DNA from: a bacterium
GTDB lineage: Bacteria > UBA8248 > JACPRG01 > G963555815
Assembly: GCA_965218795.1 (NCBI GenBank)
Contig: OZ244653.1
Location: 4,992,001-5,056,000 of the forward strand
Direction: 5' to 3'
Length of the DNA: 64,000 nucleotides
Positions within the stretch are counted from its first letter, which is position 1. The number at the start of each line of letters is the position of its first letter. The position numbers and the translations under genes are program-made. The notes under the pieces were generated by a model. It did not search any database, had not been told where the DNA came from, and saw only the letters and a program-made list of their open reading frames with translations. Below are positions 57,512 through 60,997 of the stretch, one piece after another.

Positions 57512-58718
57512 TTCCGTTGAGCTGCAACCCTGGAGTTTGGAGCTTGACCTTTCCTGGTATAGGACCAAGTGGGTTGAGAGTTTTCGGTTGTGATCATAGA
57601 GCGAAAAGTGGATTTACCCCGTTTTTGTGGACAGTTTATGGCTGTCGTCCCCAGCCCTGATGTGGGCGACAGCCGGTGGACGTACAGCCTTCCCCAAGAG
57701 CGGTGGATAGGGTATCCCCGGAGGGTATGTCTTGACCACCTTTGGCTCGCTGCTCCGGGAAGCACCGGGGACGGTTCGAGCCGGACGATGAGCGTTGCGC
57801 ACTGCACGTGGCGTTTCCTTCGCCGCGGACCGCTCGAAGTCGTTGGGGCTGAGGTAACCCAGGGCCGAATGAGGACGGCGTGGGTTGTACCAGCCTTCGA
57901 TGAATTGGAAGATCGCCATGCGCGCTTCGGCCTGGGTACGGAACGAGCGCCGGTCGATGAGCTCGCACTCCAGCGTGGCAAAGAAGCTCTCGGCCATGGC
58001 GTTGTCGAAGCAATCCCCGGCCGACCCGGTCGAGGGAACCACCCCCATCTCCCGGCACCGCTTGCCGAAGGCAAGCGAAGTGTACTGCGAGCCCTGGTCG
58101 GAATGATGCACGACCCCTTCGGGCCGGCGCTGTCCCAACGCCATGTTCAGGGCCCCGAGCACCCGTTCGGTGCGAAGATGGTGGGTCATGGACCAGCCCA
58201 CCACCCGGCGGCTGAACACGTCGAGCACGACCGCCAGGTACACGAACCCCGTCCAGGTCGGCACGTAGGTGATGTCGGCCACCCAAATCCGGTCCGGCGC
58301 ATCGGCCTGGAACTGGCGTTCGACCCGGTCCGGGGCCGCACGATGGCTCTGGTCCACGCGCGTAGTGCGCGTGCCTCGGCGTCGGCTCACCCCGCCCAAG
58401 CCCGCCTCGCGCATCAGACGAGCTACCCGTTTGCGGCTCACCCGACGCCCGTTGGCCGTCAACTCGGCATGCATCCGAGGCGCCCCGTAGGTGCCGCCAG
58501 ATGCCTCGTGGATGACCCGGATCGTGCCCCCCAACGCCTCCGTCGTGCTTCGCACGATTGGAACGCCCACGGCTTCGCCACGTGTAGTACCCGCTGGAGG
58601 AGACACCCAGCACCCGGCACATCGTGGCCACCCGATGACAGGCTTGGTTCGCCTTCACGAGCCCGAAGACCTCCCCGGCACCGAGCCGGTCTCCCGTGCG
58701 AACCAGACCGCGGCTTTC

Positions 58719-60083
58719 CTAAGAAACTGCCTCCGCACCCTCCTGCAGAACATACCCCAGAGAAGCGGCCCGTCGGCGAAGATTCTTCACCACACGCTGA
58801 CGATAACGCTCTTCATAGTATGAAGCGCCGGGATCCACATACTTCTGCCCATATCGCAGCGTGTTGTATAGCAGGACCGCAATCTTTCGGGCGGTGGCAG
58901 TCACCGCCTTGGCCTTGCCGATCCGCGCCGACAATCGACGATAGAACGCTCCGAGCGCGGTCTCGGTCCTGCCCACCGCCACCGCCGCCAGACGCAGCAC
59001 CGCAGCGGCCCGATTCGACGTACGGCGCGTTCTCGAGGCCAGAACGCGTCCACCGGAGATCTTGTTCGCCGGCGCCAATGCAAGCCACGACGTGAAGTGC
59101 TTCGCGCTCGGCCATCGAGACATATCCGTCCCACATTCGGCGATGATCTTCAGCGCAAGGTAGGGGCCGACTCCGTGAATCTGGGTCAGGTCTACGCCGA
59201 GCAACGCATACAGGGCGCCTCGTACGTCGAAGTTCAATCCGTTGGGCTGACGCGCCTTGTGCCGAGGCGCGGGCAGCGCCGCCGACGGCTCATCGACGCC
59301 ATCACTGAGGCGACCCAGGACCGCCTCGATTTCCTGGTCGCAGCGAGCCACTTGTGCTTGATACACATCGTACAGCTCCAGGGCCTGTCTCAGCGCAAAG
59401 ACGTGCTCGCGTTGGTAATGCCCGACAAGCGCTTCACGGATCGTCTCGCGTGAGGATTTACAACGGCTGTCGCGCCATGCCGCGAGTAAGTCGGGGTCGA
59501 CGACCCCCGACGCGATCGCCCGAATCATCCGCAGCCCCGTCACCCCCGTGATGTCGGACACAACATGGTGAAGCTGAACATTCATCTGGGTCAGCGCCTT
59601 TTGCATGTGTTGAATGTGCGCCGCTGCATAGTCCAGGAGGCGCTCGCGCTGTCTCAGGTAAGACCGCAACTCTGCGATCCCGCGAGTGGGGCGAAAACTG
59701 GCTCGCAACAAACCGTACTGGTGCAGCTGCTGCAGCCACTGCGCATCGTTCACGTCACTCTTGCGTCCCGGAACCGTCTTCACCTCCCGAGCGTTCACCA
59801 CGATCACTTCCAATCCATGCTCTTGAAGGATCTCGAACAACGGGATCCAGTAAACGCCCGTGGACTCCATCGCGACCGTCTCGACCCCAGCCTCTTCGAA
59901 CCAGTCGGCAAGACGCTGCAGGTCGTTGGTAAAGGTCTTGAAGGTGCGTACGGGCTCGTCAGTACCCTTCGATCCCACCGCGGCCACATGGATTCGCGAC
60001 CCAATGTCCACCCCCGCCGCATTGGGATGGACCACCGTCATGCCTCGGGAAGAACGTTTCGTCCTGCGCTTTGTACTCGCCAT
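58719..60083 (-). CDS. IS110-family recombinase
   Basis: RuvC-like GVDIG, MESTG, KSDVNDA; 'ISGG' serine motif; ARK; SD AAGGAG. Confidence 0.93.
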   Translation of the reverse strand: MASTKRRTKRSSRGMTVVHPNAAGVDIGSRIHVAAVGSKGTDEPVRTFKTFTNDLQRLADWFEEAGVETVAMESTGVYWIPLFEILQEHGLEVIVVNAREVKTVPGRKSDVNDAQWLQQLHQYGLLRASFRPTRGIAELRSYLRQRERLLDYAAAHIQHMQKALTQMNVQLHHVVSDITGVTGLRMIRAIASGVVDPDLLAAWRDSRCKSSRETIREALVGHYQREHVFALRQALELYDVYQAQVARCDQEIEAVLGRLSDGVDEPSAALPAPRHKARQPNGLNFDVRGALYALLGVDLTQIHGVGPYLALKIIAECGTDMSRWPSAKHFTSWLALAPANKISGGRVLASRTRRTSNRAAAVLRLAAVAVGRTETALGAFYRRLSARIGKAKAVTATARKIAVLLYNTLRYGQKYVDPGASYYEERYRQRVVKNLRRRAASLGYVLQEGAEAVS

Positions 60084-60330
60084 GGGTCCCTCTCCTTAAT
60101 CATGTTGGGAGATGTCCGAGAGGCGGGACGGCGGTTCCCATCATTTTCCTAATCGGGCTCGTCGATCGACGGCGCCACAGTCAAGTCCGCAGCAGTCCCT
60201 GAACCACGTTTTTTGCGGGGTCATGATCCTCCAAAAAGCTGACGGTTGCTCCCCCCGGACATCGCACATTCTACGCTGCCCACCAAGTTTCCATTCGTCC
60301 AGGAAGACGCCGTCTTGTCCCGTTTTTTAG
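58722..60330 (-). mobile_element. IS110-family element with CT core at both junctions
   Basis: Junctions gatc-CT-aaaaaacg and gcagttt-CT-tagg; removal restores host orfA EILRKAAVWF. Confidence 0.88.
60111..60263 (-). ncRNA. Candidate IS110 bridge/seek RNA
   Basis: Closing stem GAUGUCCGGGGGG/CCUCUCGGACAUC; TAGAAT -10 at 60268-60273; four segments matching target and donor flanks. Confidence 0.6.
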
Positions 60331-60630
60331 GATCTCCCGCTCTTCGCGAAGCTGACGGACCTCTCGACGAAGCCGCCGCAGCTCCTCGAGCTCCGTACTT
60401 GTCAGACCGTCCTCACGACGGCCCTCGTCGCGGTCGGCCTGGCGCACCCAGTTGCGAATCACCGAAGCAGAACACTCGAACTCCCGGGCCAGCTCCCCGG
60501 GCGTACGGCCCGAGCGAACCAACTCAACCATCTGGCGCCGGTATTCCGGCGCGTAGGGTGAATGAGTTTTCGCCATCTGAACACCTCCTGCCCACAGTCT
60601 GAAGGTGTCCACAAAAACGGGGCAAATCCA

Positions 60631-60997
60631 GCCAGCCCACGGCTTGGCGCCGTGCCGTGGGCCTCACCAGTTTTTTGACAACAGCTCCTTCAGCGCCGCG
60701 TTGTCCAGTTGTGCCTCCGCCAGAAGTCGCTTCCCATTCTCCGCCTCCAGCTCGCGCAGACGACGGGTGCCGGATATCTCCATCCCCCCGTCCTTCGACT
60801 TCCAGCGGTACAACGTCTGCTCCGATATGCCATGGTGACGGCAGTTCTCGCGTGCCGTGGCGCCGGCCTCATGCTCGCGCAGCACCCCGACAATCTGCTC
60901 TTCGGTAAACCGTTTGCGTTTCATATCGAGTTCTCCTGTACTCAGCCTCTCCAGGAAAACTCCACATGCAATGGCCTGAATTACGGGGGGAAGGTCA
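60631..60997 (-). mobile_element. Truncated IS3-family (IS407-like) element: IR, orfA 60664-60924, first codons of orfB
   Basis: TGACCTTCCCCC end; MKRKRFTEEQI..ELLSKNW; cut at the neighbouring IS end. Confidence 0.8.

Follow-up and report, generated by a model that had tools for sequence, protein, structure and literature searches.

A conserved, sense-strand structured leader RNA with target- and donor-matching segments in an IS110-family element inserted in the A-run of an IS3 orfA gene

The element and its recombinase

The 64,000-nucleotide (nt) stretch of bacterial DNA analysed here (contig OZ244653.1 of assembly GCA_965218795.1, positions 4,992,001 to 5,056,000; hereafter the window, with positions counted from its first letter) carries on its minus strand an insertion sequence of the IS110 family, made up of a long recombinase gene and a non-coding leader upstream of it (Table 1). 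The recombinase of 454 amino acids (aa) combines an N-terminal DEDD RuvC-like domain (PF01548, residues 23-167, E 4.5e-23) with a C-terminal, catalytic-serine Tnp domain (PF02371, E 1.2e-13), which bears out the family identity given in an earlier annotation made from the DNA letters (the original prediction). The segment LAPANKISGG aligns with LTPRRYESGS of IS621, placing the serine of KISGG opposite the ESG serine; the catalytic-serine motif of the IS110-family Tnp domain has been given as G--P----SG (PMC11187229).

Four copies of the element are found in the genome, all in the same IS3 context, and the window copy lies inside an IS3-type orfA (HTH_Tnp_1 domain). Two of the four (2706306-2707915 and 4907810-4909419) have a one-nucleotide insertion, a C on the sense strand at the equivalent of window position 59633, that breaks the recombinase frame after residue 150; the frame is intact in the window copy and in the copy at 1740134. 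The inserted base is also present in contigs of one sequencing run. A search of plasmid proteins returned only the generic label 'IS110 family transposase' and no named element.

Table 1. Features of the IS110-family element and its leader in the window.
Feature	Position	Strand	Remarks
IS110-family element	58718..60324	-	1607 nt counting one AA core copy; 5'-AA/CGGGACAAG ... GCAGTTTCTTAGG-3'
Left junction	60323..60338	-	target-derived GGGAGATCCT + AAAA + core AA (60324-60323), from empty sites; element proper from C60322
-10-like box TAGAAT	60268..60273	-	TAnnnT conserved, precedes P1 in nearly all homologs; putative promoter element
Covariance-model hit, leader RNA	60108..60274	-	model R1, 146.6 bits (L001:2909-3075); includes the -10-like box
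Structured RNA itself, about 150 nt	60263-60111	-	covariation-supported structure
Closing stem P1, 5' strand (GAUGUCCGGGGGG)	60251..60263	-	9/9 pairs change on both sides in homologs
Helix A, 5' strand AACCG	60243..60247	-	pairs with UGGUU 60206-60202; closes target loop
Target loop, 5' strand UCAGC-UUUUU	60233..60242	-	holds GCUUUUU, candidate right-target guide
Hairpin f, U-GG(A)GG / CCCC-G	60216..60233	-	98.7% of cells paired; contains AGGAUC
Target loop, 3' strand AAAAAAC(G)	60207..60214	-	putative left-target guide; trailing C matches the element's first base
Helix B, 5' strand GGGAC	60195..60199	-	within AGGGACUGC; pairs with GUCCC 60129-60125
Donor loop, 5' strand (ACUUGACUG)	60178..60186	-	not complementary to left end of element: 3.54 vs null 3.58
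Hairpin D, caps donor loop	60154..60177	-	99.3% of cells paired; 3/8 pairs change on both sides
UUAGGAA, candidate left-donor guide	60146..60152	-	3' strand of second loop, flanked by helices C and D
Closing stem P1, 3' strand (CCUCUCGGACAUC)	60111..60123	-	pairs with 60263-60251; 13 bp, two G-U
Recombinase open reading frame (ORF), 454 aa	58719..60083	-	from the ORF list; own stop codon TAG (58721-58719) inside the element
GTTTCT adjoining the right end	58722..58727	-	inverted repeat of GGAAAC 60292-60287 (family consensus AGAAAC)
Right junction	58705..58717	-	core AA (58717-58716), then right target A-GCCGCGGTCT, from empty sites and contig joint

Element ends, AA core and target site

The ends of the element can be read from sites that lack it. 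In two empty IS3 paralogs of the same genome (GGGAGATCCT-AAAAAAA-GCCGCGGTCTGGTTCGCACGG) the flanks of the window copy are joined through seven A's; shorter extracts of these two sites read GAGATCCT-AAAAAAA-GCCGCGG or GGGAGATCCT-A7-GCCGCGGTCTGG. The four occupied sites have CCT-A6-CGGG at the left junction and TTAGG-A3-GCCGCGG at the right one. Public contigs aligned to the window join position 58715 to position 60323, skipping 1607 nt with two bases that fit either side, and loose contig ends read CCTAAAAAAAGC. The genome of a relative with many copies shows the same arrangement: its empty paralogs (...CATCTTC-AAAAAAAA-GTGGCCGAC, that is, TTC-A8-GTGGCC) correspond to occupied sites with A7 on the left (...CTTC-AAAAAAA-CGGGCTC...) and A3 on the right (...GTTTCTTAGG-AAA-GTGGCCGAC). 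Since the empty sites, the contig joint and the relative's genome agree, the element ends on the right with ...GTTTCTTAGG (58718), so that both TTAGG (58722-58718) and the TAG stop codon are part of it, and the core is AA within the A-run, two nucleotides common to donor and target, insertion having turned A7 into A6 + A3. In keeping with the IS110 family, insertion causes no target duplication, and the short core is common to donor and target.

The A's at the left junction are target-derived, because copies of the same element differ there and tandem junctions lack these bases. Within one genome, copies of one element have different left junctions (L070 vs L062 and L034 vs L032, with AGCAAAC vs GGCAAAC and AGAAAAC vs A-AAAAC). 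The circle junction would read ...GTTTCTTAGG-AA-CGGGAC.... Head-to-tail tandems (L018:2871-2920, L015 at about 1860-1890 and the right flank of L064) join GTTTCTTAGG-AAA-C to the left end, one A more than the AA junction expected from empty and occupied sites; such a joint could represent insertion into the left junction of a resident copy instead of a plain circle junction.

In the original prediction the element had been delimited by a CT core (60330-60329) and a right target TAGGAAA. These ends are four nucleotides off: the empty sites read CCT-AAAAAAA-GCC, without TAGG, and the empty site that the earlier ends predict (GATCCTTAGGAAA), whose joined flanks would keep the IS3 frame (ILRKA), is absent from the genome. 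The restored target, GAG ATC CTA AAA AAA GCC GCG, encodes EILKKAA and holds an in-frame A AAA AAA in the IS3 orfA, a motif that we take to be the usual -1 frameshift heptamer of IS3 elements. Seven IS3 copies of the genome without the A-run (GAGATACTGGCAAAAGC) are unoccupied. The IS3 paralogs at 2643972 and 3131650 (CCTAC-AAAAAA-GCTACGG) have a six-A run with GC to its right, yet are unoccupied.

Structure and strand of the leader RNA

The leader is a conserved, covarying, sense-strand structured RNA with target- and donor-matching segments. Relatives were collected by scanning one-genome-per-species contigs, in which at least 499 were confirmed by tblastn and the best 80 (62-92% identity) were fetched. 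A pattern scan of viral and metagenome contigs gave 99 loci, of which the 36 that matched the model at E <= 1e-5 were kept; the remaining loci failed this threshold and were dropped as chance pattern matches. The structure, derived with RNAalifold on 42 leaders and by manual reading of the alignment, consists of the closing stem P1 and of helices A, f, B, C and D. In the unfitted alignment 86.6% of the cells are paired, against 77.4% after shuffling, with a covariation score of 0.306 versus 0.143; in the 92 model-aligned sequences the corresponding values are 93.8% versus 82.6% and 0.318 versus 0.130, and in neither case did any of 500 shuffles reach the observed score, and that of the model-aligned set drops sharply when the partners are slid by 1-3 columns. 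Helix A is paired in 99.8% of the cells, with three of its five pairs changing on both sides and one G-U pair invariant (89/89); helix B is paired in 98.7% of them, again with changes on both sides in three of five pairs (for example UGGGCUG/CAGCCCA and GGGGUGGC/GCCACCCC). A conserved, covarying structured RNA in a non-coding end is among the traits by which bridge-RNA and seekRNA systems are recognised, and the leader shows it. In an Rfam 15 scan of positions 58500-60700 no bridge-RNA family was detected, the best matches being at chance level (E >= 0.19) and below gathering scores.

The -10-like box and the 13-bp closing stem with two G-U pairs described in the original prediction were both recovered, as was the notion that this stem works only on the recombinase strand, which can be extended to the whole structure: three pairs are invariantly G-U or U-G (89/89, 90/90 and 92/92) and a fourth is G-U in 32/89 sequences. 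The RNA is assigned to the sense strand because the invariant G-U pairs would be C-A mismatches on the other strand. This bears directly on an RNA made from the opposite strand, with IS621-like segments in a circularly permuted order, a reading under which the reverse complements of the segments do fit the IS621 rules, provided that the earlier ends are used. The three invariant pairs, and the fourth wherever it is G-U, would be turned into C-A mismatches, the conserved TAnnnT box is upstream when the sense strand is read, and with the corrected ends the sense RNA already follows the IS621 strand rules; an opposite-strand RNA is thus very improbable. The leader is presumably transcribed.

Target guides in the first loop

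On the 3' strand of the first loop, AAAAAAC (60214-60208) reproduces the top-strand left target (the A-run) and the AA core, and is on the same strand as the left-target guide (LTG) of IS621. In 76 of 84 elements its 7 nt recur unchanged at the left junction, and all six variant guides (GGGAAAC, GGCAAAC, CTCAAAC, AAGAAAC, GAAAAAC and TAAAAAC) recur at their own junction. AAAAAAC is read from these comparisons as the left-target guide and, like the IS621 LTG, ends at the core; natural retargeting events define the target guides of the family.

The 5' strand of the same loop has the form N5-UUUU(U), and the bases before the U-run are complementary to the first bases after the A-run of the target. 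In the window copy, GCUUUUU (60239-60233) is complementary to the top strand AAAAA-GC; the guide/right-flank pair is thus GC/GC here, and AGUGC/GCACT, UUCGC/GCGA, UCAAC/GTTG, AAGGC/GCCT and AAAAG/CTTT elsewhere, the variant guides that fit variant flanks including those of L079, L075, L175, L144 and L010. Contiguous pairing averages 1.79 over the 57 distinct guide/flank pairs, compared with 1.10 +/- 0.09 in a permutation test in which none of 5000 shuffles reached the observed value. The signal persists in the subset without the common GC (1.55 vs 0.75, 0/5000 shuffles) and is weaker in the GC subset (1.94 vs 1.69, 3/5000 shuffles). GCUUUUU, which the original prediction had overlooked, is accordingly put forward as a candidate right-target guide (RTG). 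Loop segments that covary with both target strands are a further trait of bridge-RNA and seekRNA systems, and the leader has them. The U-run of this guide can in addition pair with the A's of the cognate left target.

The leader lies directly upstream of the recombinase ORF, with a Shine-Dalgarno-like AAGGAG at about 60098-60093, and could for this reason be seen mainly as a 5' untranslated region controlling translation or stability of the recombinase messenger, the flank matches being incidental. Six independent guide variants that track their junctions, a right-flank complementarity reached by none of the 5000 shuffles, and the family precedent, which is RNA-guided recombination, leave such a reading with hardly any probability.

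In a relative present in one genome (L062, L066, L068, L069, L064, L070 and L067) the left-target guide is UGGCAAAC, and those copies occupy ...GGGC-AAA-C... sites within DDE_Tnp_1_4 transposase genes; they carry different combinations of flanks, which suggests recombination between copies. The segment AUCUCCC (60113-60107), complementary to the left-target GGGAGAT (30/1000 shuffles), was also considered as a guide and was set aside as a chance match, being unconserved in the tails of homologs.

Chance matches and the nested guide model

The original prediction had proposed four guides around a CT core, AGGAUC / AAAAAACG / AGGGACUGC / UUAGGAAA, with the donor guides nested inside the target guides and a polarity opposite to that of IS621. 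All four strings are present on the minus strand (AGGATC 60230-60225, AAAAAACG 60214-60207, AGGGACTGC 60200-60192 and TTAGGAAA 60152-60145). How often such matches arise by chance was measured in 1000 mononucleotide shuffles of the 239-nt leader. The two 8-nt identities, of the second and fourth segments, are rare (11/1000 and 10/1000 shuffles). For the left-target site of the nested model, a 7-nt wobble match, the longest in the leader, occurred in 294/1000 shuffles and a 7-nt Watson-Crick match in 30/1000; for its donor-end site, a 6-nt Watson-Crick match occurred in 249/1000 and a 10-nt wobble match in 60/1000. The 6-nt AGGAUC and the wobble-dependent AGGGACUGC are within the chance range, because matches of that length are common in shuffles. 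The caution that came with the prediction, that matches of 6-9 nt can be fortuitous, was justified for these two segments.

Comparison with homologs separates the segments in the same way. AGGAUC falls within hairpin f, where it supplies the bulged A, two G's of the stem and three bases of the loop; the stem is conserved, and the loop differs among homologs with the same left target. The GATC of the segment is, moreover, self-complementary. The third segment is the 5' strand of helix B, its AGGGAC being engaged in the covarying pairing with GUCCC, and it varies while the right end GTTTCT does not. The covariation with flanking sequences that had been suggested as a check holds for segment two and in part for segment four; segments one and three show no relation to the flanks in homologs. 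Both surviving segments remain guide candidates with a changed assignment: AAAAAAC(G) matches the left target and core, not the element end, and UUAGGAA matches the right end of the element and core, not the right target. Once the ends are corrected, the order is target, target and then donor, with no nesting; every guide ends at the core, where all had been said to start at it; and the guides lie on the same strands as their IS621 namesakes. A difference from IS621 does exist, as had been claimed, but it concerns the order within the target loop and neither nesting nor polarity. Taken with the empty sites, these results make the nested model almost certainly wrong. The case illustrates how an error of 4 nt in the element ends can create a spurious new guide architecture, and corrects a tempting reading; errors in element ends have been flagged for ISfinder entries in general (Siddiquee et al., PMC11187229).

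A probable donor guide in the second loop

UUAGGAA is identical over 7 nt to the top-strand right end TTAGG followed by the AA core, the relation that a left-donor guide (LDG) would show. In 67 of 74 elements the guide's five nucleotides preceding the core are those of the right end, and in five of ten variants the changed guide matches a changed right end, UCAGG accompanying TCAGG (four elements) and AUAGG accompanying ATAGG (one element). On this comparative basis UUAGGAA is probably the left-donor guide. Mutual-information and excess-match scans of the leader against the four half-sites recovered the right-target pairing only (columns 39-40); they gave no run for the left end, and for the element's own ends the clade signal dominates.

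Near both ends lies a short inverted repeat, GTTTCT and AGAAAC, which is near-invariant across the family alignments. The repeat is of 6 bp and asymmetric: in the window copy it stands 4 nt away from the core on the right and 30 nt away on the left; in homologs AGAAAC is found about 30-45 nt inside the left end, at a variable spacing from the core. It is a candidate protein site or, alternatively, a candidate for RNA pairing in a junction-spanning transcript. A covarying hairpin directly precedes AGAAAC in the family.

A bridge RNA reading target and donor

The explanation favoured here, with a probability of roughly 0.8, is that of an intact IS110-family element in the A AAA AAA heptamer of an IS3 orfA, with a sense bridge RNA that guides both target and donor. 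It is built on what was shown, namely where the element ends, an overlap of AA, how the RNA is structured and on which strand it lies, and covariation of the two target guides with flanks. The leader would encode a bridge RNA of about 150 nt, with a 13-bp closing stem and two internal loops. The first loop would read the target, its 5' strand GC-UUUUU pairing with the top strand along the right target, the core and the A-run, and its 3' strand AAAAAA-C with the bottom strand along the left target and the core. The second loop would present UUAGGAA on its 3' strand, presumably as the donor guide. The RNA would be bound by the DEDD/Ser recombinase, which by analogy with IS621 may exchange strands at the shared AA through the same chemistry.

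Several observations weigh against this explanation. In six RNA regions compared with the core and left end, the longest complement equals the null in all six; one of the four canonical guides, that for the right donor, is therefore missing or unrecognised, since nothing pairs with the left end beyond chance. The right-target guide is short, extending 2-5 bp beyond the U-run, and 14 of the 57 guide/flank pairs score 0, so the right-target pairing requirement would have to be loose. TTAGG and UUAGGAA are nearly invariant, with two types of change only, and five of the ten variant donor guides are unmatched. Fitting the alignment of 92 distinct sequences (A3) to the model biases its pair counts in favour of the structure, and related elements are not independent samples. 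The leader folded as a single sequence is no more stable than its shuffles (z = -0.02), and this fold differs from the covariation-supported structure. A sigma-70 promoter scan gave no full site. Among public sequencing runs none recorded as RNA was found to contain the stretch, the aligned contigs being of unrecorded kind and so silent on transcripts, and covariation and G-U pairs are the only basis for the strand and ends of the transcript.

Some of these points favour an RNA that guides the target only, in the manner of a short seekRNA, with UUAGGAA having a structural or protein-binding role and the ends being read by the recombinase through GTTTCT and AGAAAC. Such an RNA needs no guide for the left end, tolerates donor segments that barely vary or are unmatched, and gives the near-invariant hexamers a function; short seekRNAs with target matches alone have been described as sufficient for movement (PMC11187229). 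It does not account for the exact identity of UUAGGAA to right end and core, kept over five nucleotides in most elements, nor for right ends and donor segments that change together, and the variable spacing between AGAAAC and core suits a fixed protein dimer site poorly. A target-only RNA is thus unlikely, with a small but real share of the probability, and guidance of both target and donor is preferred.

Relation to IS621, IS1111 seekRNAs and ISEc21

Along the RNA the order is right-target guide, left-target guide, an unassigned strand and left-donor guide, that is, the target loop followed by the donor loop. In the target loop the top-strand binder GCUUUUU would stand 5', and the bottom-strand binder AAAAAAC 3', of hairpin f. 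For IS621, Hiraizumi et al. (2024, PMC11208158) place the LTG 5' (about nt 43-53) and the RTG 3' (nt 74-80), with handshake bases 81-82 after it; the present element does not have this order. Other traits are shared with IS621 as it is presented in Durrant et al. (2024, PMC11208160): a DEDD and Ser recombinase, a non-coding RNA encoded upstream of the gene, within the left end, a pair of internal loops of which the target loop comes first and the donor loop second, left guides identical to the top strand and a right-target guide complementary to it, all ending at the core, and a 2-nt core common to donor and target without duplication. The protein is very distant from that of IS621 (phmmer E 1.9e-5, in the C-terminal domain only) and longer, with 454 aa where the solved IS621 chain has 328 residues (a preprint gives 326 aa). 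The core is CT in IS621 and AA within a homopolymer here; the pairing of the right-target U-run with left-target A's and the undetected right-donor guide are further differences.

Seen from the other DNA strand, the loop arrangement is exactly that of IS621, and the C after AAAAAA, which is also the first base of the element, comes to stand at the place of the IS621 handshake bases. This is suggestive only, both sides being invariant. A reading of C(G) as a handshake guide was tried and not retained: its first base, invariant on both sides, gives no covariation, and its second base correlates alike with several left-end positions, so that a handshake role is speculation.

The seekRNAs of the IS1111 group (ISEc11, ISPa11 and ISKpn4), as described by Siddiquee et al. 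(2024, PMC11187229), likewise have the top-strand match 5' of the bottom-strand match, two matches that overlap in the target, and an element with a subterminal inverted repeat, comparable to GTTTCT / AGAAAC. In that group the non-coding region is downstream of the gene, the recombinase has 330-350 aa and the repeats are of 7-17 bp (PMC11187229, PMC11208160), whereas here only 1 nt separates the end of the ORF from the right end, the non-coding region precedes the gene, the recombinase has 454 aa and the repeat is shorter and asymmetric. ISEc21, the one IS110-type element tested by Siddiquee et al. (PMC11187229), resembles this element in that its non-coding region is upstream and that it enters transposase genes of the IS3 family; it is reported to target the codons around the second D of DDE, unlike the A-run (KK codons) in orfA, and its bottom-strand match is 5' of the top-strand match, the reverse of the present order. 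The element would thus join a guide order of IS1111 type to a long recombinase and an upstream leader of IS110 type. By size alone the protein can be likened to the 395-455-aa group around IS110 itself (PMC11187229). Diverse predicted bridge RNAs across the family have been presented by Durrant et al. (PMC11208160), whose Extended Data Fig. 10c may already show such a guide layout.

Targets of the family

For a survey of targets the left flanks of 95 distinct insertion contexts were translated, and the 83 with at least 40 open codons were scanned for domains. A transposase domain was matched upstream in 57 of the 83; by domain, 40 flanks had HTH_Tnp_1 (IS3-type orfA), 15 had HTH_33/HTH_32, presumably typical of IS630-type transposases, two had DDE_Tnp_1_4, one had HTH_28 only, and in 25 no family was recognised. 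Almost every junction lies in an A-run that is read as KK. Judged by these flanks and junctions, other insertion sequences are the family's main prey.

A wider claim can be advanced tentatively, with somewhat less than an even chance of being right: a large, widespread IS110 subfamily would have a mirrored (IS1111-like) guide order in an upstream bridge RNA, an AA core in a homopolymer and three detectable guides, and would be specialised on the A-run heptamers (KK codons) of other insertion sequences. Its members would then be hyperparasites that split IS3-type orfA-orfB and IS630-type genes exactly at the frameshift site, retargeting being achieved by changes of 1-3 guide bases (GGGAAAC, GGCAAAC, CTCAAAC and others), and would be a clear example of an insertion sequence that disables others at their programmed-frameshift site. 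Work on bridge recombinases can draw on a family remote from IS621 whose RNA structure is well supported, on its natural retargeting events, on the mirrored guide order in an upstream leader and on the AA core. No literature was found on IS110 insertion at slippery or frameshift heptamers or on guide-order variants, a result that does not extend to the figures and supplements of the Durrant and Siddiquee papers, which may show it.

A subgroup (L010, L009, L011, L015, L018, L024, L029, L117 and L123) inserts after ...AQEAFKK, at the end of the HTH_33 winged-helix domain, and the A-run at this point of the transposase genes may likewise be a frameshift or slippage site.

Surroundings of the element in the window

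Just upstream of the host IS3, a short ORF on the minus strand (60664-60924, MKRKRFTEEQIVGVLREHEAG...) reads like an IS3-type orfA; the IS3 that hosts the IS110-family element may itself sit in or next to another insertion sequence. The orfB of the host IS3 is present on the same strand in two overlapping frames (57614-58658), of which 57636-58658 holds the N-terminal part and 57614-58606 the rve domains, so that this IS3 copy looks defective even apart from the IS110 insertion.

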